Source of the DNA: a bacterium
GTDB taxonomy: Bacteria > Bacteroidota > Ignavibacteria > Kapaibacteriales > UBA2268
Direction: 5' to 3'
NCBI GenBank assembly: GCA_024711295.1
Contig: JANJTB010000002.1
Coordinates: 145,804 to 209,803 of the forward strand
DNA: 64,000 bases
Part shown: positions 1 to 63,268 of the stretch, piece after piece
Numbering within the stretch: position 1 is the stretch's first letter
Layout of the letters: every line of letters begins with the position of its first letter
Program-made: the position numbers and the translations under genes
The notes under the pieces: generated by a model
Told to the model about the DNA's origin: nothing
Seen by the model: only the letters and a program-made list of their open reading frames with translations
The model's database searches: none

Positions 1-474
1 TTAATGGTAAATAAAATTGTTCAGGACATTTTCCCAAAGATTGAAAAGAACTTACCAAATGCAAAACTTATAATTGCAGGCGCAAATCCCACAAAGGAAA
101 TTATAAATTGTAAAACTAAGAATATAGATATCATATCTAATCCATCAGATATTGTAAGAATATATCAATCTGCAGTCATTTTCCTGCACCCTCATGCAGG
201 GGGTTCAGGAATTCAGAACAAAGTACTCGAAGCGATGTCTTGCGAATGTGCTGTCATAACATCTCAAAGCGGCTCGAATGGAATTGACATAGTTAATAAT
301 GTTAACGGGTTTATAGCTAATAATGATGAAGATTTCGTTAGTTTATGCATTAATTTGCTCAATAATGAAACTCATCGCAATATTGTTGGTCAAAACGCTA
401 GAAAATATGTTGTTAACACGAAATCATGGGATAAAGTTTTCTCTGACTTGGACAATATTATTGAAGAATTATAA
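1..474 (+). CDS. Glycosyltransferase family 1, C-terminal fragment (5'-partial; the frame is open to the window edge)
   Basis: The C-terminal GT1 domain signature 'EAMSCECAVITSQ...GIDIV' (E-X7-E-like) is present. The frame is open from base 1, so the N-terminal domain lies upstream of the window. Confidence 0.6.
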   Translation, partial: LMVNKIVQDIFPKIEKNLPNAKLIIAGANPTKEIINCKTKNIDIISNPSDIVRIYQSAVIFLHPHAGGSGIQNKVLEAMSCECAVITSQSGSNGIDIVNNVNGFIANNDEDFVSLCINLLNNETHRNIVGQNARKYVVNTKSWDKVFSDLDNIIEEL

Positions 475-480
475 AAAAAA

Positions 481-501
481 TGGGCTGAATTATTCAGCCC
501 A
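481..501. terminator. Bidirectional rho-independent terminator: perfect 9-bp hairpin GGGCTGAAT-T-ATTCAGCCC flanked by an A-run and a T-run
   Basis: The inverted repeat is read directly from the sequence. It lies between the convergent genes 1..474(+) and 528..2645(-). Confidence 0.7.
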
Positions 502-527
502 TGTTAAAGATTTAGTTTGATAGAAAA

Positions 528-2645
528 CTATTTACTTAAATTGATTTTTTTAATATAAATGCCTTCATCACCCGACATTTTAATTAAATATATACCATTA
601 CCTATGCTAAATTTACTAAAGTTAATAGTATCAAAATACTCGCCTGTTTCACAATATCTATTTACTAATTCAGCAATTTCATTACCTAAAAGATCTAACA
701 TTTGTATTTTTACAAAGCCATTTTTAGTTAAGTTATATCTTATAGTGGCATGACCTTGAACAGGATTTGGGAAAATCATTAATTTTTCACTATTTATATT
801 AGCAAATTCAACAGAAGTGCCTCCCTTGGCTGTGAAACTCATCACTGGGCTGAAAGGTCCAGATCCCGATTCTGAATTGGCTTTAACTCTCCAATAATAT
901 GTTTTGTCAGATTTGAGCAAATCTTTAGGAAGTGTATAATTAACGTCCTCCCATTTAAGTTCATTTACTATATAACCCTGATCAAAACCAATTCTATCAG
1001 CAAGTTGAACATTGTATGTAGTGGCACCCGGAACTACATTCCAACTTAGTGTAGGAGTTAAGTCCGTTTCTGTTCCATCTGCAGGTCCAACTAATGTAGG
1101 AGCCGGAAGTGGGACACCAGTGTGAAACTTCCAGGATGATGTGTAAGAGCTTTCACCACCAGAATTAACGGCTTTAACTCTCCACCAATAATCAGTTTCA
1201 TTGTTTAATCTACTTGGTGGTACAACATGAAAAGTATCCGTCATGCTTGATTTTGTGTATCTTACAGAAAATCCCTCGAATGTTTCATCTCTGGAAATCT
1301 GCAATGTATAAGTTTCGGCACCGGGTACCGATGTCCAGTAAAGTAACGGTGTTGTAGAATTTGTTACGGTATTATTTGCTGGACCTGCTAAATATGGTTT
1401 GTCGGGTACCGGATAAGCTGTTGTAAATGAAAACACCTGCGACCAACCGCTCTTACCTGCATCATTCATTGATGCTACTCGCCAGTAGTATGTGGTTTCG
1501 TAATCTAATTCATTAGGGGTATAATAGTTAACTGATAAATTATTTTTATCAATAATTATCTTGCTAAAATTCTGATCTTCGCCAAGTTGAAGATGGAATC
1601 TGCTGGTGTTTGGAGTCAATGACCAGGTTATAGAATTATTTAACTTAACATATTTTGCCAAATTTTCAGGAGTCTGTGGAGTTGGGGCTGTTGGTGGTTG
1701 AGTGTGATTAATATTAGTCAACTCAAACCAGTAAGTAAAATCTTTCATTGTCCCACCAACGTTAACATTCCTGATGGTTACGGTATATTTTACATTATCA
1801 GCCAATCCATCTGCTTTCCAGCTTAGGTTGTTTGGAAATGAGCCCCACCCTTCATTATCATTTTTGACTGAGTGAACACTTACAGGATTACCTGATTCAT
1901 CTTTCATCTCGACAGTAGTACCTGAATACGTAACATTTTGGTTATTCCACAAATTTGTTTTGCTTGATAAAGCATTAAATGAAAGATAAAATGATTTGTT
2001 TACATACTCGGGCGGATAATACTCATAGGGATAAGCTATAAAGTCAAGTTGATTTTCGACGGCATTTCCATCAGTAAAATCTTGGTATAAAAATAGTGAA
2101 GCATGGAAATCAGAACTTCCACCAGATTTTGGTTTACCGTATGACTTACCAAACGAAAATCGTGTAAGGAAAGGATTCAATATTGCTCTGCGATGACCAA
2201 CTTTGTACTGACCTTCAATATCAGCGTTATGGTCATCTATCAACCAACCGACAATCGATCCTATTGCGGTGTTACCTGCACCGCCATATTCAATATTGCC
2301 TTTCATTCTGGCTTCACCACCGGCTTTTGTATAACAAGGTGTTGAAGGATTGTCAATGTGACCACCCTCGCCACTAGCTACCATATTTAAGCATCCTTCC
2401 ATCGACATTGCACTACCAAGTGCTTCGTAGGTTACTGGTTTAAGTTTGTGAAGGCTCCTGATATGATTTACTTTGTCAAGAACTTCATTGATAACACTTT
2501 GCTTCAAAGTGCCTGCGTTGCAATTATTAACATCAGGTTGAACTTCAAAATACTGCGAAAAACTAGCTTCGACAGGTTTGTCAGACGCAAATCCATTAAT
2601 CGTTAAAATGCAAATAATCGAGAAAAATGTTAATATCCCTTTCAT
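528..2645 (-). CDS. Secreted multidomain surface protein: N-terminal signal peptide, CAP/SCP-like domain, three FN3-like repeats, C-terminal T9SS sorting domain
   Basis: Hydrophobic N-terminus. The region 'GHIDNPSTPCYTKAGGEA...IVGWLIDDHNADIEG' resembles a CAP domain. Repeats of the form 'YWWRVKAVN...W' are FN3-like. The C-terminus 'FPNPVQGHATIRY...GIYLIKM' is a type IX secretion CTD. Confidence 0.55.
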   Translation of the reverse strand: MKGILTFFSIICILTINGFASDKPVEASFSQYFEVQPDVNNCNAGTLKQSVINEVLDKVNHIRSLHKLKPVTYEALGSAMSMEGCLNMVASGEGGHIDNPSTPCYTKAGGEARMKGNIEYGGAGNTAIGSIVGWLIDDHNADIEGQYKVGHRRAILNPFLTRFSFGKSYGKPKSGGSSDFHASLFLYQDFTDGNAVENQLDFIAYPYEYYPPEYVNKSFYLSFNALSSKTNLWNNQNVTYSGTTVEMKDESGNPVSVHSVKNDNEGWGSFPNNLSWKADGLADNVKYTVTIRNVNVGGTMKDFTYWFELTNINHTQPPTAPTPQTPENLAKYVKLNNSITWSLTPNTSRFHLQLGEDQNFSKIIIDKNNLSVNYYTPNELDYETTYYWRVASMNDAGKSGWSQVFSFTTAYPVPDKPYLAGPANNTVTNSTTPLLYWTSVPGAETYTLQISRDETFEGFSVRYTKSSMTDTFHVVPPSRLNNETDYWWRVKAVNSGGESSYTSSWKFHTGVPLPAPTLVGPADGTETDLTPTLSWNVVPGATTYNVQLADRIGFDQGYIVNELKWEDVNYTLPKDLLKSDKTYYWRVKANSESGSGPFSPVMSFTAKGGTSVEFANINSEKLMIFPNPVQGHATIRYNLTKNGFVKIQMLDLLGNEIAELVNRYCETGEYFDTINFSKFSIGNGIYLIKMSGDEGIYIKKINLSK

Positions 2646-2775
2646 ACTATATTTAATTAGAGTTAATAAACATAATTACAAAAATAACAAAAAATTATTA
2701 TTTCACTTATACCTATATTTATTTGGTATTACAGAATACTCAAAATAATCAGCTTATTTCGTTCATCAATCAAAA

Positions 2776-3486
2776 TCAATCGCGATTCATAAGAAAACTA
2801 AAATCAGATTTATTATTCAATTCAAAGGGCTCAGTATTAAACTTAAAAATGCGTACATTTTTATCACCAAGTAGTTTTAAATCTGTTCCGTTTAACTCGA
2901 AGATACTTCCTTCTCTCAATCCACAAACGAATATATCCTTGTTGAGTTCAAGAAATTCCAAGATTCTTTGTTCACGTGTTTCTCCGTGATGGCCTTCAGG
3001 GTGAGCATCTAAATAATGTGGATTAATCTGAAAAGGAACCAGGTTCAGCGCATTAAATGAAAGCGGCTCTACAATAGGCATATCATTTGTTGTCCTTATT
3101 GTTGGGCAGGCAAGATTAGACCCTGCACTCCACCCTATATACGGCATACCGGCTATGACCTTGTCATAAATTAAATCATTGAGACCATTATCATACACGG
3201 TTTTCAATAGATTGAATGTGTTACCACCACCAACAGCAATTGCATCTGCCGAATCAATAATTTTCTCGGGGTCTCCCCTGTGTATCGAAGCAATTTCGTA
3301 TCCTAATTTTGTGAAAACGCTCGCTACCTTTGACTCATAATCATCCCATTTGACCGTCACTCCGGCATAAGGTACAAATGCAATTTTTTTTGTAGAATTT
3401 CCGAAAAAAGACTTTATATCATTTAGTGCATGTTCTAAGTATCCGTATCCTTGTGTTGTAGAATTGCTTAATAATAGTAATCTCAT
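2776..3486 (-). CDS. pepE: Peptidase E (S51 alpha-aspartyl dipeptidase family)
   Basis: The N-terminus 'MRLLLLSNSTTQGYGYLEHAL...FVPYAG' and a length of 236 aa match PepE/S51. Confidence 0.7.
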   Translation of the reverse strand: MRLLLLSNSTTQGYGYLEHALNDIKSFFGNSTKKIAFVPYAGVTVKWDDYESKVASVFTKLGYEIASIHRGDPEKIIDSADAIAVGGGNTFNLLKTVYDNGLNDLIYDKVIAGMPYIGWSAGSNLACPTIRTTNDMPIVEPLSFNALNLVPFQINPHYLDAHPEGHHGETREQRILEFLELNKDIFVCGLREGSIFELNGTDLKLLGDKNVRIFKFNTEPFELNNKSDFSFLMNRD

Positions 3487-3665
3487 ATTATTTTCCTGTT
3501 TTTAGAATAATTATAAACTCTAATTTAGCTAAAAAAAAAGTAACAACAAAAAAAAATTGACATATCTCTGTTTTATTAACTTATTTGATTATGAACATAA
3601 AATCTAATTAATAATTTTAGTGTTATATTTGTACTCTATTAAAATTGCAAAATTTACTATTTTTT

Positions 3666-5375
3666 ATGATAAAATCTCTTTTGGTAAAAGATTTTGCCCT
3701 GATAACAGAAAGTTATATAAACTTTGACAAAGGCTTAAATGTTATCCTGGGAGAAACAGGCTCCGGTAAGTCAATGCTTATTGATGCCTTGTCTGCAGTA
3801 TTTGGAGAAAGAGTTTCAGCAATGATAGTAAGGAATGGAGCAGTTAAATCAGTAATTGAAGTTGAAATTTCAATCACAAACGATGAAATCATTGATATTC
3901 TTAAACAGAATGAAATTGAGTTATTCGATGATCACATGATAATCAGACGTGAAATTTCTGCAAAGTCGGGTTCAAGAAATTTTGTTAATGACACCCCTGT
4001 TAACATGAACATCCTAAAGCAAATTGGTGAAAAGTTCATTGATTTCCATGGTCAACACGAACATCAGTCATTATTGAACAGTACATTTCATGCAGAAATT
4101 TTTGATAAAAGTGCTAAAATTAGCGACTTAATTGAGCAATATTCACAATTATACTACAATCTGAAGAATAATGTTGAAGAATTGAATACACTAATCAACA
4201 GCGAGAAAATTCTAAGGGAGAAATACGAATACTCAAGGTTCAAGCTTGAAGAAATATTAAAAGTTAATCCGGTAGAAAATGAAGATTTGAATTTGGAAAA
4301 AGAGCTCAATTTTCTTGAAAATTCTGAAATTCTTTACACTCTCAGCAATCAGCTATATCACGAGCTATATGATGATGAAAATTCTATATTCAACAAACTC
4401 TCTTTATCACTTAAAACAATTTCAAAACTTACCCAAATTGATACTTCATTTGATGAATATTTCAAAGAACTCGAAAGTGCTTTAATAATTATGCGTGAAG
4501 TCAGCTCCTTTACTAATGATTACTATTCGAACATTGAATTTAATCCTGAGAAAATTGAACAAATAAGATTAAGGTTACTTCAAATTAAATCACTTCAAAA
4601 GAAGTATGGTTCTGTGGGCGATATTATAAAACTTAAAGAGCAGTTGCAATCCGAACTGATTCTCATCGAAAAATTTGAGGAAAACAAAAATAAACTGATC
4701 AATGAAATTAACGAGCTAAAGAGGGCAATATTCGAAAAGGCACTGATAATAGAACAAAAACGTGTAGAATATTCCAAAGAGTTCTCAGGCAATATTGTTG
4801 AATCCCTTAATAACTTAGGAATTAATAATGCCACATTCGAGGTGAAGGTCGAAAGAAATATCGCTGATTTCAATGATACTACTGATTTTTCATATAATTA
4901 CAATGGCACAAATTATTCAATATTGCGAAATGGAATCAACAATATTGAATTTTTTATCTCCACAAATCTCGGAGAGTCACCTAAGCCATTGCAAAGCGTT
5001 GCATCCGGTGGTGAAGTATCCAGAATTATGTTGTCAATCAAAAATATTCTTGCTGATAAGGATAATATATCCTGCCTGGTATTTGATGAAATTGATACAG
5101 GAGTTTCAGGCAGAATTGCACAGATGGTTGGCAAATCAATGTCGGAACTGTCAAAATATCATCAAATAATTTCAATTTCACACTTACCGCAAATTGTTGC
5201 TTATGCAGATATGTGCATTTTAGTTGAGAAAATTGAAAATGCCGATTCCACTACTTCTTCTTCAAAAGTATTGAACGAAGAAGAGAAGATTCACGAGATT
5301 GCTAAATTAATCAGTGGTAGTCAGGTATCTGACGAAAGCTTAAGAAGTGCAGAACTATTAATAAACAACAAGTAA
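3666..5375 (+). CDS. recN: DNA repair protein RecN
   Basis: 'IKSLLVKDFALI...LNVILGETGSGKS' is the RecN N-terminus with a Walker A motif. Coiled-coil middle region and C-terminal signature region are present. The ORF track starts at a TTG at 3645. The ATG at 3666 fits the RecN N-terminal consensus better. Confidence 0.85.
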   Translation: MIKSLLVKDFALITESYINFDKGLNVILGETGSGKSMLIDALSAVFGERVSAMIVRNGAVKSVIEVEISITNDEIIDILKQNEIELFDDHMIIRREISAKSGSRNFVNDTPVNMNILKQIGEKFIDFHGQHEHQSLLNSTFHAEIFDKSAKISDLIEQYSQLYYNLKNNVEELNTLINSEKILREKYEYSRFKLEEILKVNPVENEDLNLEKELNFLENSEILYTLSNQLYHELYDDENSIFNKLSLSLKTISKLTQIDTSFDEYFKELESALIIMREVSSFTNDYYSNIEFNPEKIEQIRLRLLQIKSLQKKYGSVGDIIKLKEQLQSELILIEKFEENKNKLINEINELKRAIFEKALIIEQKRVEYSKEFSGNIVESLNNLGINNATFEVKVERNIADFNDTTDFSYNYNGTNYSILRNGINNIEFFISTNLGESPKPLQSVASGGEVSRIMLSIKNILADKDNISCLVFDEIDTGVSGRIAQMVGKSMSELSKYHQIISISHLPQIVAYADMCILVEKIENADSTTSSSKVLNEEEKIHEIAKLISGSQVSDESLRSAELLINNK

Positions 5376-5376
5376 C

Positions 5377-5976
5377 ATGCTTTATAGTAGAACATTTTTT
5401 AGTAAAGATGAAATCGAGAATGCTATTGCCGGCAAAATAGAGCCGTTGGAAATTAACAGGATACTTTCTGCTTACGATATGTCGGATATGGCTTTTTCAG
5501 ATAAAATGTCTCTGAACGGTACACCATATTTCTTTCACACTACAAGAGTGTGCAAGATAATCATTCAAGAGCTCGAAATATTTGATTCAGACTTAATTAT
5601 TGCCGCATTGCTCCACGATATTTTTGAAGTCAATGAAGATATTTCACCTGAAATTATTGATTACAACTTTGGTCCTTACGTGACATATTTGCTGAGCATA
5701 CTCAAGGAAGATTTTCACTCGATAGACTCAATACCAGTGCCTGCTTTGGATGATTCTGCAAATGTAAAAATTCCTACTGATGATTATCTTATTATTTGGT
5801 TGTCCGAACATCTCGATAATTTCAGAGCACTTGATGTATCGCCTGTTTTTAATCCGGTAAACTATATACTTAATACATTATCACTACATATCCCTGCGGC
5901 TGAGCAAAGTAATAACATTTATGTACAGAGGTTAATGATTGAGTTGAAAAAAGAAAGGAATAAAATACTTGGTTAG
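5377..5976 (+). CDS. HD-domain phosphohydrolase-like protein
   Basis: An H...HD motif is present ('FFHTTRV...AALLHDIFE'). Its start codon falls 1 nt after the recN stop codon. Confidence 0.4.
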   Translation: MLYSRTFFSKDEIENAIAGKIEPLEINRILSAYDMSDMAFSDKMSLNGTPYFFHTTRVCKIIIQELEIFDSDLIIAALLHDIFEVNEDISPEIIDYNFGPYVTYLLSILKEDFHSIDSIPVPALDDSANVKIPTDDYLIIWLSEHLDNFRALDVSPVFNPVNYILNTLSLHIPAAEQSNNIYVQRLMIELKKERNKILG

Positions 5977-6000
5977 TAATTTTATTCCTTAAATTTTATG

Positions 6001-6074
6001 GGCGAATGACGGGGCTCGAACCCGCGACAACCAGAGCCACAATCTGGTACTCTACCTGCTGAGCTACATCCGCC
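6001..6074 (-). tRNA. tRNA-His (anticodon GTG) with genome-encoded G-1
   Basis: The reverse complement folds as a cloverleaf. Acceptor GCGGATG/CATTCGC, anticodon loop TTGTGGC, an extra 5' G opposite C73, and T-arm GGTTCGAGCC. Confidence 0.85.
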
Positions 6075-6159
6075 ATAATACAGTTTACAAAAATAATACT
6101 TTTCTGTTAATTTACCAAGAAATTCTTATTTCTTAGCACATAACTCGCCTTTTTTCGAT

Positions 6160-6275
6160 TTTCAGTAATTACCGCATTTTAATCCGTAAAAATACGTAAA
6201 ATAAAATTTTGAGTATTTTCACGGATTGTTTTTGTAAATTCCGTCACGTATTTTTGAATCGTAATTATTTGAAAC
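6160..6275. promoter_or_regulatory. Leader region with clustered direct and inverted repeats (AATCCGTAAAAATACGTAAAA / TTTCACGGATTG / TCCGTCACGTATTTTT / TAATTACCG...CGTAATTA)
   Basis: The repeats are read directly. They sit in the 460-bp non-coding gap between tRNA-His and the first pilin-like gene. Confidence 0.35.
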
Positions 6276-6538
6276 TTTATTTATTGTTCTTTGGAAATAT
6301 AACTATGGCACAAAAAAAAGAGCCCGAAATAGCGGCCAACTAATTCGAGCTTTATAGGGTGCATTTATCATGAAAAAAATGCAATGAAAAAGACGCACCT
6401 GCCATACAAATATTATAAATCGTGTTGAAATAAATGTTAGCATCATTAATACGGCCGATTAATCTTTGCTCATTTATATTTTTCAACCGCTTGTTTTTCT
6501 TTTATTTTTTTTTAATTAACTTTTTAGAGGGTCTTATC

Positions 6539-6985
6539 ATGAAAAAGCTTTTAGCAATTCTCGTAGTTGCAATTCTAGCAACAACTTTCGCTATGTCACA
6601 ACACAATGCACCAGTAACTGCAAATGCAAATTTTGACATTGCAGTTATCCAACCCTTATCTTGGTCAAAAACTGCAGATGTTGATCTTGGTGCAGTAATA
6701 ACAGGCTTCGTAAAACCTGTAGTTGCAAACATTACTTTTACTTTACAAGGTGAGTTTCAGTACGGCAATACTCCATATAAAGTTGATATTACTAGTTCAG
6801 GTCCAGATCCTGTTGATGGAGTGGTTCTACATGGCACTTGGTCAGGAACAGGAACAGTAGATCTTGATGCTGCTGGTCAGGCTTCCGTAGTTTATACCAC
6901 AATCCATGTAGATGCAACAGCTGCTACATCAAATGGGTCAAAAGTATTCACAATTAGTGTTAATGCTAAATATAACAATTTATAA
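6539..6985 (+). CDS. Small secreted pilin-like protein, paralog 1 (conserved mature N-terminus QHNxPV)
   Basis: There is a GAGGG Shine-Dalgarno sequence 8 nt upstream. The signal peptide is 'MKKLLAILVVAILATTFAMS'. The protein is paralogous to the next two genes. Confidence 0.65.
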   Translation: MKKLLAILVVAILATTFAMSQHNAPVTANANFDIAVIQPLSWSKTADVDLGAVITGFVKPVVANITFTLQGEFQYGNTPYKVDITSSGPDPVDGVVLHGTWSGTGTVDLDAAGQASVVYTTIHVDATAATSNGSKVFTISVNAKYNNL

Positions 6986-7013
6986 TTAAATAACAACTTA
7001 TGGAGTATTTATC

Positions 7014-7523
7014 ATGAAAAAGTTTATCATATTAATCGTTTTCTTAGCCGCTTTAGGCACATTATTTTCTCAGCACAACAATCCGGTTCAATCAGATAAC
7101 GGCAATTTAACAGCAAAAGTAATCAAACCTTTTTATGTAATTGATATAACTGATAATATACCTAATGGTAATCCAGTACCTGAAGTAATTAAAGGTCAAA
7201 AAAGGGTTTTGACTGCACCTGAAGGTATCTTGCTTTTTGAAATGGGACGTGAAGCACCTTATATAGTTGACTTTGAACTAAAAATTCCTCAACCTGTTGA
7301 TGGAGTAACGATCGTTGGATGGTGGGAATTTTATGAAGAAGCACCTCCTATGACATTTTCATTCCCCGGTTATCCACTTAACCAATATTGGTACTGGGAG
7401 AATTCTACAAGAGATAAAGGATGGATAACATTCAAAATTTCTGAGATTGATGCAAGAAATGCCAATTCTACTGGAATCAAGACTTTTACTGTCAATGCAA
7501 AAGGTCAATACAGAAGCCTTTAA
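7014..7523 (+). CDS. Small secreted pilin-like protein, paralog 2
   Basis: Signal peptide followed by 'SQHNNPV...LTAKVIKP', which is shared with paralogs 1 and 3. A GGAG Shine-Dalgarno sequence lies upstream. The C-terminal 'TFTVNAK' resembles the paralog 1 ending 'FTISVNAK'. Confidence 0.65.
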   Translation: MKKFIILIVFLAALGTLFSQHNNPVQSDNGNLTAKVIKPFYVIDITDNIPNGNPVPEVIKGQKRVLTAPEGILLFEMGREAPYIVDFELKIPQPVDGVTIVGWWEFYEEAPPMTFSFPGYPLNQYWYWENSTRDKGWITFKISEIDARNANSTGIKTFTVNAKGQYRSL

Positions 7524-7556
7524 TTTCATAAAACAAAACTATTTAAAGGTATAGTT

Positions 7557-8045
7557 ATGAAAAATTTAATAAGCTGCATGTTCGTACTTTTGATTTCAGG
7601 AGTTGTGTTTGCACAAACACATAATCCTGTGGTCGGAGATGAAGGAACAATGACAGCAAAAGTTATAACGCCACTGACTGTCTTCGAGCCATCTGAATTA
7701 ATGGAATACGTTGTAATCCAAAATCAAACTAAAACTCTAACAGCTGACAATAAGTTTGAGTTCAGACTTGAAGGTGAGGCAGGAATGTTTGTTAACGTCA
7801 ACTTTATCGGACCCAATGCAGTTGTACAGCCACCAATTGGTAGCATACCAGTGCTAAGTGGTGCTTGGTTCGGACCTGGTAATGTTCCTGTAACAGGCAA
7901 TAGTGGTACATACCAAATTCCTGATTTTCCTGCTGAGTCATTTTTTGATGTATTTTTTGAGTTGAATACAATAAATGCAACAGGAGCTGACTTAGGTATA
8001 GTAACATACGAACTTGGAATTGAATATTCTTATCAAGGTATGTAA
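7557..8045 (+). CDS. Small secreted pilin-like protein, paralog 3
   Basis: Signal peptide followed by 'AQTHNPVVGDEGTMTAKVITP', which is paralogous to the two preceding genes. Confidence 0.65.
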   Translation: MKNLISCMFVLLISGVVFAQTHNPVVGDEGTMTAKVITPLTVFEPSELMEYVVIQNQTKTLTADNKFEFRLEGEAGMFVNVNFIGPNAVVQPPIGSIPVLSGAWFGPGNVPVTGNSGTYQIPDFPAESFFDVFFELNTINATGADLGIVTYELGIEYSYQGM

Positions 8046-8061
8046 AATTATAATATTTATA

Positions 8062-8091
8062 AAAAGCACCCATAGAAATATGGGTGCTTTT
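8062..8091 (+). terminator. Intrinsic terminator or attenuator after the three pilin-like genes (AAAAGCACCCA-tagaaata-TGGGTGCTTTT)
   Basis: An 11-bp stem followed by a T-run is read directly. It sits between the subunit genes and the downstream assembly genes. Confidence 0.65.
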
Positions 8092-8099
8092 CAATAAAA

Positions 8100-8549
8100 A
8101 TGAAAAAAACAAAGGTAATATTAACTATAATTTTGATTTCCATCTTCTGGACCGGTAATTTAAGCTATGGCATTGAAGATACCGATAATCCAATTGAAGT
8201 ATTCGCATATTATGATTTAAACATCGGAACAATACCCATAGGAATGAAGAAAGTTTTCGAGAGTGACGAACAAATAATCAAGTTTGTCATCAAGTGCAAA
8301 AAAGACAGATTGATTAGAATTACAAAGATAAATGAAATAGGAAATGAATTTTTGATTATAGATGCAGACTGGAAAGCAGGTCCATTTACAGGTTACGAAA
8401 TCCCATTTAGCGGACTTGGCATTTACAGGAGCGAGCAGGATATATTTTTATTAACAATTAAAATCAAATCAATAGAAGTGAAAAGCTACACACAATCCGG
8501 CAAATACCAAATATCACCGAAGATTACTGTTGATTACGCAGATTTATAA
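8100..8549 (+). CDS. Small secreted protein of 149 aa; it could be a minor subunit or adaptor
   Basis: The signal peptide is 'MKKTKVILTIILISIFWTGNLSYG'. It is not similar to the three pilin-like paralogs. Confidence 0.45.
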   Translation: MKKTKVILTIILISIFWTGNLSYGIEDTDNPIEVFAYYDLNIGTIPIGMKKVFESDEQIIKFVIKCKKDRLIRITKINEIGNEFLIIDADWKAGPFTGYEIPFSGLGIYRSEQDIFLLTIKIKSIEVKSYTQSGKYQISPKITVDYADL

Positions 8550-8598
8550 CTGCTTAGGAAAATAACCATACTTATTTTTTTGTTAGGAGTAAACAAAC

Positions 8599-9432
8599 AT
8601 GAAAAAACTTACAATATTAACATTGCTGATAATAATGCTTACCCAGTTTGATTTGCTTTCGCAGGTAGGGATTTATCCACAGGCAGTTTTCTTGAATCAG
8701 AAAAATAGGGCAAGTAATCTTAAAGTACTAAATATGACTAATGAAACAAAAGAAATAATTCTTGACCTAAAGTTTGGATATCCTGATTATGACTCTCTGG
8801 GCAACTATTCTCTGGTTTACGGCGACACATTGCCCGGCGCTAAGTGGTCGGCTGTACCCTTTGTCAGAATGTTTCCCAAAAGATTACTTCTCAAGGCAAA
8901 TGAGGAACAAGTTGTTAAGTTCATGTTAGGCAATATGGGGAATGTACCTGATGGTACTTATTTTGGAAGAATCCATGTTCTTTCAAAAAATCCACCTGAA
9001 GAAATTGATACAACCTATACAGAATCAATTACAGCAAAAATTGACATACATTTTACACTTATTTCTGCATTGATTGTTGACAAAGGCAAAACTTACTGTG
9101 ATATAAGTGTTAAGCCGATGGGAACATTCTCAGATTCAAACATGGTCAATTTCTTAGTGAATGTAAATAAAGATGGTAATGCTCCATTTTTGGGTACAAC
9201 TGAAATGAAAGTATATGATTCTATGGGTAAACTTGTGGCACAAAGCAAGGACTTAACACCGTTCTATTTTAGTGGTACAAGATCTTTCAGATTCGATAAG
9301 AAATTATTTTCGAATGGTCGTTACAACGTCGAGCTTACAATGTCAAACGAGCACAAGGACGTTCCTGACGATTTCAAAGTAGCAATTAAGCCTGTAAAAG
9401 AAACATTCTCTGTTGATTTAGATGGTATATGA
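8599..9432 (+). CDS. Periplasmic PapD-like fimbrial chaperone candidate
   Basis: Signal peptide present. The mature N-terminus 'GIYPQAVFLNQKNRASNLKVLNMTNETKEIILDL' follows the 'I.P.r.if.......sl.v.N' pattern of pilus chaperones. At 277 aa the size is typical. The assignment rests on motif memory only. Confidence 0.4.
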   Translation: MKKLTILTLLIIMLTQFDLLSQVGIYPQAVFLNQKNRASNLKVLNMTNETKEIILDLKFGYPDYDSLGNYSLVYGDTLPGAKWSAVPFVRMFPKRLLLKANEEQVVKFMLGNMGNVPDGTYFGRIHVLSKNPPEEIDTTYTESITAKIDIHFTLISALIVDKGKTYCDISVKPMGTFSDSNMVNFLVNVNKDGNAPFLGTTEMKVYDSMGKLVAQSKDLTPFYFSGTRSFRFDKKLFSNGRYNVELTMSNEHKDVPDDFKVAIKPVKETFSVDLDGI

Positions 9433-21938: not shown

Positions 21939-21968
21939 GAGCAACAGTAATGTTGCTCTTTTTTTTAT
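21939..21968 (+). terminator. Intrinsic terminator (GAGCAACA-gtaa-TGTTGCTC followed by T8)
   Basis: Read directly. Confidence 0.7.
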
Positions 21969-60922: not shown

Positions 60923-60953
60923 TCTATTGTTCAGATAAAAAATGATACAAAAA

Positions 60954-60982
60954 GGCTGCTATTCAATAGCAGCCTTTTTTTT
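60954..60982. terminator. Bidirectional terminator (GGCTGCTATT-c-AATAGCAGCC followed by T8)
   Basis: Read directly. It overlaps the stop codon of the minus-strand response-regulator gene. Confidence 0.65.
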
Positions 60983-63242: not shown

Positions 63243-63268
63243 AAAAAGCCCACCGAAGTGGGCTTTTT
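63243..63268. terminator. Bidirectional terminator (AAAAAGCCCAC-cgaa-GTGGGCTTTTT)
   Basis: Read directly. It serves both the protease gene (+) and tRNA-Thr (-). Confidence 0.75.

Follow-up and report, generated by a model that had tools for sequence, protein, structure and literature searches.

The window analysed here is a stretch of 64,000 nucleotides (nt) from a Kapaibacteriales genome assembly (GenBank GCA_024711295.1, contig JANJTB010000002.1). Close to its beginning, on the plus strand, it carries a cluster of six genes, four of which encode small, secreted, putative fibre subunits (S1-S4), one a candidate periplasmic chaperone (C), and one an usher-like outer-membrane protein (U). S1, S2, and S3 stand in a row and are followed by a hairpin of the intrinsic-terminator type, beyond which lie S4, C, and U. 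The features of this region are as follows:

6280-6538, plus strand: conserved non-coding leader, from a six-locus alignment across differing genomic contexts
6539-6985, plus strand: S1, 148 amino acids (aa), "a-type" subunit, first gene of the array
6637-7539, no strand assigned: strain-variable cassette comprising mature S1 and the whole of S2, from blastn against the related loci L001 and L002
7014-7523, plus strand: S2, 169 aa, "d-like" subunit paralog
7557-8045, plus strand: S3, 162 aa, "e-type" subunit, conserved last member of the variable array
8062-8091, plus strand: intrinsic-terminator-like hairpin, 13-base-pair (bp) stem, GAAA loop, A-run before and U4 after
8100-8549, plus strand: S4, 149 aa with a signal peptide, distant subunit paralog
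8599-9432, plus strand: C, 277 aa, periplasmic PapD-like two-domain chaperone candidate
9429-12608, plus strand: U, 1059 aa, outer-membrane usher-like protein with a C-terminal OmpA peptidoglycan-binding domain

The three genes ahead of the hairpin are arranged head-to-tail, with spacers of 28 nt between S1 and S2 (6986-7013) and 33 nt between S2 and S3 (7524-7556). Each has its own Shine-Dalgarno-like motif: GAGGG at 6527-6531, 7 nt 5′ of the S1 ATG; GGAG at 7002-7005, 8 nt 5′ of the S2 ATG; and a weaker AAGG at 7546-7549, 7 nt 5′ of the S3 ATG. All three proteins open with a Sec-type signal peptide, lack a lipobox cysteine, and have a mature length of about 125-150 aa. Their relationship is significant in BLASTP, with 28% identity for S1-S2 (E value 6e-12), 25% for S2-S3 (E 2e-10), and 26% for S1-S3 (E 2e-6). 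After removal of the signal peptides, the local-alignment z-scores are 13.0 (S1-S2), 11.8 (S2-S3), and 5.4 (S1-S3), and the observed score was reached by none of 500 shuffles. Of their two best-conserved parts, one includes an N-terminal segment, N-F-D-I-A-V-I-Q (motif F-D-I-A-V-I-Q); a C-terminal G...Y motif is also conserved in the S family. In all these respects an initial annotation, which had described three head-to-tail paralogs with 28-33-bp spacers and individual Shine-Dalgarno sequences, is borne out by the open reading frames, the spacers, and the alignments alike. The dN/dS ratio, which it had put forward as a further check, gave nothing usable, because synonymous divergence (dS) between the paralogs is saturated (1.2-4.3). 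The dS of orthologs in the related loci L004 and L006 is also saturated (>1.3 or undefined), and nonsynonymous divergence (dN) is lowest in C (0.15-0.19), with values of 0.18-0.45 for the S genes and 0.29-0.41 for U.

The relatives available for comparison are mostly derived from metagenome bins and bear mutually inconsistent taxonomic labels. Two of them, L001 (a contig of Candidatus Kapaibacterium sp. GCA_054685795.1) and L002 (a Joint Genome Institute metagenome contig), are 98.9% identical to positions 1-6636 of the window and 99.6% identical to positions 7540-15787 (blastn). In the close clade and in the other recovered loci, the gene order is n subunit genes followed by S4, C, and U, where n ranges from 1 to 6: three in the window, four in L004, L006, L028, and L032, five in L001, L002, and L008 (in the last of these the first gene is a weak match), six in L010, and one to four in more distant loci. 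Best-match typing yields conserved positional types, a-b-(c/d)-e-S4, of which the window has a, d-like, and e, without b. From this conservation it follows that S1-S3 are not the recent triplication of a single gene. By alignment and position they are paralogs of ancient origin in a fixed order, such as occur in operons with one major and several minor subunits, and, given that their types are ancient and keep their places, different structural roles are probable, S1 being a candidate for the major shaft subunit. The "tandem triplication" of the initial annotation is therefore apt for three paralogs in a row, but not as an event in the recent past, and the array has a fourth member beyond the hairpin (3+1).

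The S-C-U synteny is strict even in relatives at about 26% identity, whose U bears another C-terminal domain. In L040 the U homolog stands after four small genes, one of them weakly matching DUF4402, and a clear C homolog (E 1.4e-50), and S4 is absent. In L039, a Bacteroidales metagenome-assembled genome, the U homolog has a DUF4402 gene immediately before it. That gene (7419-7943) is split into pieces of 57 and 111 aa, by a frameshift or an assembly error; it is preceded by two giant proteins with immunoglobulin (Ig)/PKD repeats, and no chaperone-like gene is present at L039.

The genes right after the hairpin had been taken for assembly genes, which does not hold for the first of them. Pairwise similarity of S4 to S1-S3 is not significant; comparison of the S and S4 family profiles gives 97.7% (E 2.4e-12, 148 columns; hhalign), and by this measure S4 is a fourth, distant subunit paralog and not an assembly gene. 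In the profile alignment it lacks about 11 mature N-terminal residues, among them the N-F-D-I-A-V-I-Q segment of S1-S3. Its ATG lies 8 nt 3′ of the hairpin with no Shine-Dalgarno-like motif ahead, and all complete loci of the close clade have S4 ahead of C.

Chaperone and usher characters are found in the two genes that come next. The fold of C is that of a PapD-like two-domain chaperone, which provides the cluster with a chaperone-type member. The start of U overlaps the stop of C (ATGA). A 22-member profile of the U family matches the E. coli ushers FimD, HtrE, EcpC, YehB, and SfmD at 96.3% (E 1.8e-9; hhalign) over 573 collinear columns, which place U 186-837 on usher 170-837 and take in the barrel, a plug at about U residues 281-365, and the C-terminal domains; in the reversed control E is 0.15. 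The U barrel alone scores 88.5% against ushers, 0.5% when reversed, and 0.3% against TonB-dependent receptors. At the level of profiles, then, U qualifies as an usher-like outer-membrane protein. Its OmpA domain (PF00691, residues 969-1050, 61.3 bits against a cut-off of 27.2) is the sole Pfam/NCBIfam match among the six proteins, and only OmpA-like domains match U in the PDB (E down to 1e-10). Weak TDE1717, BasA, and CHU_C matches in Pfam/NCBIfam were discarded as far below cut-off. The C-terminal module of U varies by lineage: OmpA, SPOR, or CarboxypepD_reg/SdrD_B-like extras without a wall-binding domain. OmpA and SPOR domains both bind peptidoglycan. The instances located are the following:

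OmpA: window, 12333-12578
SPOR: P0045-P0050, L039, and L040
Neither: L004, 13503-16616

The subunits themselves are more remote from known families. An AlphaFold2 model of S1 predicts a beta-sandwich (predicted local distance difference test, pLDDT, 88.5) in which residues 21-40 lie outside regular strands. The list of its Foldseek matches in the PDB consists almost entirely of chaperone-usher pilins, FimG and FimA being the best, and the matches are weak (E at least 2e-3, TM 0.4-0.5). Profiles of the S family and of S4 show no significant similarity to E. coli classical pilins (13-15%, hhalign). The family is small, with 175 relatives among 1.84 billion cluster representatives in a profile search. 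Among 138 S-family representatives scanned, DUF4402 (PF14352) is genuine in eight (best E 7.2e-16) and SCPU (PF05229) is found weakly in three (best E 7.7e-4); S1-S4 have no SCPU match, and the DUF4402 model matches no window protein at any E up to 10. The mature S profile, with signal peptides removed, nevertheless resembles that of DUF4402 (89.5%, E 2e-6; reversed, 0.3%; hhalign), and being profile-similar yet below threshold, the S proteins are remote relatives of DUF4402 and not members of it. The neighbourhoods of two true DUF4402 proteins are uninformative, P0196 being on a 1-kb contig and P0197 an orphan on a phage-like contig. The latter (L036, L037, and L038; in L036 at 8001-8423) stands among short unannotated genes beside a Phage_Gp111 gene, which suggests a phage-borne copy of a subunit-like fold.

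The hairpin, AAAAGCACCCATA-GAAA-TATGGGTGCTTTT, occupies exactly 8062-8091 and begins 16 nt past the S3 stop codon. Its stem has 13 perfect pairs (a 9-bp core with five G-C pairs, plus four A-U pairs) and not the 11 bp first reported. With a minimum free energy of -20 kcal/mol (z -6.8 against 200 shuffles), it is the strongest among the perfect hairpins of the window. It is present there only once, which rules out an origin as a repeat or mobile element. The stem is followed by UUUU and then CAAU (five U in eight), and a simple terminator scan did not call the site because the U-run is absorbed into the stem. Four other perfect hairpins of the same A-run/GC-stem/T-run design occur in the window (480-502, 21939-21958, 60949-60979, and 63243-63268), all just past gene ends and three of them between convergent genes; by this token the hairpin at 8062-8091 is of the normal terminator type of the genome. 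Neither S-S spacer of the window contains a hairpin, and inverted repeats in 5900-8700 are short and imperfect except for this one, while other subunit junctions in relatives have hairpins of -10 to -27 kcal/mol. In Rfam only a tRNA-His scores above threshold, and the matches at the hairpin are sub-threshold and resemble generic terminators.

The position of the hairpin, at the junction of the last S gene and S4, is conserved. It is identical in L001 and L002, and in L004 an A-U pair beside the core is swapped to U-A. The same core with a 6-nt loop is found in L006, L016, L028, L032, and L033; L007 and L017 have GCGCCC/GGGCGC instead of GCACCC/GGGTGC; L018 has a homologous hairpin with a changed upper stem; and L008 and L021 have hairpins with unrelated stems at the junction. 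Elsewhere the U-run is five U long (L004, L017, and L021) or nine (L040). In an alignment of six loci, which are few and related, 94.8% of cells are paired, as against 55% or less when the partners are slid; compensatory changes affect 4 of the 13 pairs, and the covariation score was reached by none of 500 shuffles. In L040 the boundary between the last subunit gene and C has an 11-bp GC stem with nine T behind it, and a 103-nt spacer before C. The presence of a terminator at this equivalent boundary indicates that a terminator between subunit and machinery genes is a conserved design of the family. The "strong terminator" separating subunit from assembly genes can be kept as regards stem strength, conserved position, and covariation, but its U-run is short, and S4 stands between it and the machinery. 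A leaky terminator would be in keeping with that short U-run, with the 8-nt distance to the S4 start, and with a spacer that has no conserved promoter.

Comparison with L001 and L002 reveals a further property of the array. A segment of 903 bp (6637-7539) is replaced in both by 2107 bp that have no nucleotide similarity to it, and the flanks are about 99% identical; given such flanks around a replaced middle, the stretch is a strain-variable cassette. Within the 2107 bp are the coding sequence for the mature portion of another first subunit and three further subunit genes. The left breakpoint falls just past the signal peptide of S1 and the initial residues of its mature part, and the right breakpoint 17 nt before the S3 ATG. 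S1 exists in two allele classes behind an identical signal peptide. Mature S3 is identical in the window and in L001, with two differences in the signal peptide. In L001 the 5′ ends of the neighbouring paralogs d and e share 129 nt at 89% DNA identity, which suggests gene conversion or recombination at subunit 5′ ends; this shared sequence is a plausible substrate for cassette exchange. It comprises the ribosome-binding site, the signal peptide, and the first approximately 20 mature residues (L001 11649-11777 against window 7545-7673), and the rest is unalignable. The antigenic diversification that had been read from the divergence of the paralogs is not shown by that divergence; the strain-level replacement of mature S1 and S2 is real, however.

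Taken together, the region probably holds the subunit genes of a pilus operon of the chaperone-usher type, highly divergent and situated in a Candidatus Kapaibacterium genome, with the hairpin as a leaky terminator. The fimbrial-operon-like arrangement seen by the initial annotation is upheld by the usher profile match of U, the pilin matches of S1, and the conserved boundary hairpin, although no database model agrees. S1, S2, and S3 would be Ig-like fibre subunits of three ancient types, exported by Sec. By analogy with chaperone-usher systems, C would cap the open groove of each subunit in the periplasm and hand the subunit to U, where the conserved N-terminal strand of the next subunit would displace the chaperone, and the fibre would grow outward. 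S4, which lacks this N-terminal strand and is placed with C and U, would fit a subunit that enters first and once per fibre, as a tip or initiator. Transcription would mostly stop at the hairpin, past S3, and continue only part of the time into S4-C-U, so that the subunits needed in many copies per fibre would outnumber the parts needed once. Through its OmpA domain, replaced by SPOR in relatives, U would tether the assembly platform to the cell wall, and cassette exchange would alter the number and sequence of shaft subunits between near-identical strains.

Several observations weigh against this interpretation. None of the fimbrial models searched in Pfam and NCBIfam (Fimbrial, SCPU, DUF4402, PapD_N, and Usher) matches any of the six proteins, a profile search of PDB sequences is empty for C and yields nothing significant for the S family, U residues 1-185 are unlike usher N-terminal domains, and the cluster contains no gene for a two-domain tip adhesin. 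As for the terminator, the U-run has only four U in the window and is missing in L008, and L009 and L010 have a weak junction hairpin where L019 has none. Furthermore, a sigma-70-like sequence, TTGAAT-17-TAAAAT, lies just upstream of the hairpin at 8020-8048 and may act as an internal promoter. On the most radical alternative there would be no pilus: S1-S4 would be small Ig-like proteins, either secreted or in the outer membrane, with C and U as their unrelated neighbours, a beta-sandwich protein and an OmpA-family outer-membrane protein. The failure of curated family models to call any of the six proteins fimbrial, the weakness of the S1 fold matches, and the label "opacity protein-like surface antigen" given in one source to an S1 homolog agree with this view. 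It has very little probability in our judgement, as three independent lines contradict it (the fold of C, the profile match of U with its negative controls, and the list of pilins matched by S1), and the S-C-U synteny holds down to about 26% identity.

Other alternatives accept the operon and concern the hairpin or the paralogs. The hairpin may be an efficient terminator between two transcription units, with S4-C-U transcribed from their own promoter in or after S3 and promoter strengths setting the stoichiometry. Its stem is as strong as those of terminators at real unit ends in the genome, L040 has a full terminator with nine T and a long spacer before C, and the sigma-70-like match ends about 14 nt before the hairpin. 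This match is, however, one of 27 in the region where 31 are expected by chance, and it is not conserved in L004; a transcript from there would bear the hairpin at its 5′ end, given the 8-nt gap to the S4 ATG, and a run of four U usually reduces termination efficiency. We regard two units as unlikely. A role in RNA processing or stability is another option: the messenger RNA would be cleaved nearby, with its 3′ end guarded, or a small RNA would arise from the 3′ untranslated region, and subunit message would once more exceed that of the assembly genes. There is precedent in the E. coli fimA-fimI spacer, which holds FimR2, a small RNA made by RNase E processing of fimAICDFGH (PMC9723502), and the stem is conserved and covarying while the U-run varies, down to its absence in L008. 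The A-run/stem/T-run design is nonetheless that of ordinary bidirectional terminators at other gene ends of the window, and the Rfam matches are generic and sub-threshold, which makes processing very unlikely. With regard to the paralogs, they might be alternative antigenic or adhesive variants swapped by recombination, by which the fibre escapes phage or predators. The replacement of mature S1 and S2 by four unrelated genes within nearly identical flanks, the breakpoints just past the S1 signal peptide and just ahead of the S3 ribosome-binding site, the two S1 allele classes behind one signal peptide, and the 129 nt shared by L001 paralogs as a recombination substrate would all be expected. 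Yet each copy is complete, with start, signal peptide, and Shine-Dalgarno-like motif, which excludes silent cassettes; the type order a-b-c/d-e is conserved across diverged genomes and points to distinct roles; no invertible element was found, the inverted repeats of 5900-8700 being short and imperfect apart from the hairpin; and dN/dS is not estimable. Such a system of variants is therefore quite unlikely, and the leaky-terminator pilus operon remains the preferred reading.

Upstream of S1, the leader of about 260 nt is conserved in the window, L004, L006, L008, L028, and L032, where the neighbouring genes differ. It carries an invariant TGTTCTTTG box, which RNAalifold pairs with the S1 Shine-Dalgarno region, without covariation, and two hairpins with CGGCC in both loops. 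The first has the loop GCGGCCA and covarying stems; the second has the loop ACGGCC(G) and lies about 95 nt before the S1 ATG. At 6355-6387 the ribosome-binding site and start of S1 recur (AGGGTGCATTTATCATGAAAAA) and meet a stop almost immediately, reading MKKMQ* in the window and MK* in L004, L006, L028, and L032, while L008 lacks the ATG; this copy may be what is left of the start of a subunit gene, or else a start-stop mini-ORF. On the minus strand, 6312-6355 has the textbook form of a terminator, the first leader hairpin being followed by 8-11 T, and a sub-threshold Rfam match resembling NsiR1 covers 6314-6370 on the same strand. A small RNA, antisense or divergent and opposite the S1 leader, may end at this terminator. 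A search for a Bacteroidetes-type promoter (TTTG ... TAnnTTTG) upstream of S1 gave no convincing match, and no phase-variable promoter was seen.

Between an HD-domain gene and the cluster lies the tRNA-His gene (GTG; 6000-6073, minus strand). The GC content of the cluster is 33.8% against 34.8% for the window, which rules out a compositional anomaly, and no second cluster of such genes is found within the 64 kb. The genomic surroundings differ in L004, L006, and L028, indicating that the cluster has moved as a module. In several relatives the gene next 3′ of the usher, on the opposite strand, encodes a hybrid histidine kinase/response regulator of 380 aa; a phosphofructokinase gene (12638-13939) holds this position in the window. 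The regulator genes are located as follows:

L004, 16703-17845, minus strand: hybrid histidine kinase/response regulator gene
L028, 14701-15843, minus strand: the same
L032, 7040-8185, minus strand: the same

The closest known systems are the archaic (sigma) pili, such as Csu of Acinetobacter baumannii (csuA/B-A-B-C-D-E) and CupE of Pseudomonas, and the classical fim and pap systems. Both types resemble the window in gene order, chaperone fold, and usher homology, and in having a structured element behind the subunit gene or genes. Unlike Csu and CupE, its proteins have no SCPU, PapD_N, or Usher matches in Pfam, no two-domain tip adhesin gene follows the usher, and the usher has an extra OmpA domain (SPOR in distant relatives). 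Archaic chaperone-usher systems have been described in Proteobacteria, Cyanobacteria, and Deinococcus-Thermus (PMC4654587), a range outside which the present host, related to Kapabacteria/Bacteroidota, falls. The E. coli fimAICDFGH and pap operons likewise place the major subunit gene first, then a structured intercistronic RNA, and then the chaperone and usher genes; in pap, a terminator follows papA. U is collinear with the E. coli ushers, and S1 finds its best structural matches in FimG and FimA. Conversely, the subunit sequences are unrelated to the classical ones at profile level (13%, hhalign), at least three subunit genes precede the hairpin where E. coli has one, no phase-variable promoter is evident in the window, and minor subunits do not follow the usher.

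With DUF4402, a family of small secreted proteins, the subunits share the motifs ..V/I-I-x-P-L.., D-L-x-F-G, and F-x-I-T-G-E and a C-terminal G-x-Y...V-x-V-x-Y. The S profile retrieves true DUF4402 proteins, and in L039 and L040 the U homologs have DUF4402 genes immediately ahead of them; S1-S4, on the other hand, miss the model at E up to 10, and some DUF4402 genes are orphans on phage-like contigs. The type V pili (FimA/Mfa1) of Bacteroidota also come from hosts of the Fibrobacteres-Chlorobi-Bacteroidetes group and, as is predicted for the window, form surface fibres of Ig-like subunits joined by strand exchange. In type V pili the subunits are lipoproteins, about 300-500 aa long, which undergo proteolytic maturation and need no chaperone or usher; those of the window measure about 125-150 aa in mature form, lack a lipobox cysteine, and have chaperone-like and usher-like genes beside them. 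Literature searches on DUF4402, Kapabacteria pili, and OmpA-domain ushers yielded no prior description, and DUF4402 is mentioned by no paper of the library searched.

The layout of subunits, terminator, and assembly genes is thus ordinary for fimbrial operons; the host and the degree of divergence are less so. Judged by profiles, fold, and synteny, the cluster belongs to a chaperone-usher branch that databases do not annotate. More tentatively, and as a joint proposal that may well not hold in all its parts at once, this would be a deep, undescribed branch in Kapabacteria and other Bacteroidota-related lineages, in which the subunits are DUF4402-like, the chaperone is PapD-like, the usher is held to the cell wall via a fused OmpA or SPOR domain, S4 without a donor strand starts the fibre and is co-made with the machinery past a leaky terminator, and the shaft subunits are swapped between strains as a cassette. 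The locus deserves attention for its six proteins unrecognised as fimbrial, its small family, its hosts outside the phyla listed for archaic systems (PMC4654587), and an usher-like protein fused to a peptidoglycan-binding domain. If the reading is confirmed, the chaperone-usher pathway would extend into Bacteroidota-related lineages, and the cassette would be a natural example of fibre-subunit variation between near-identical strains; if it is true, DUF4402 proteins would gain a suggested function.

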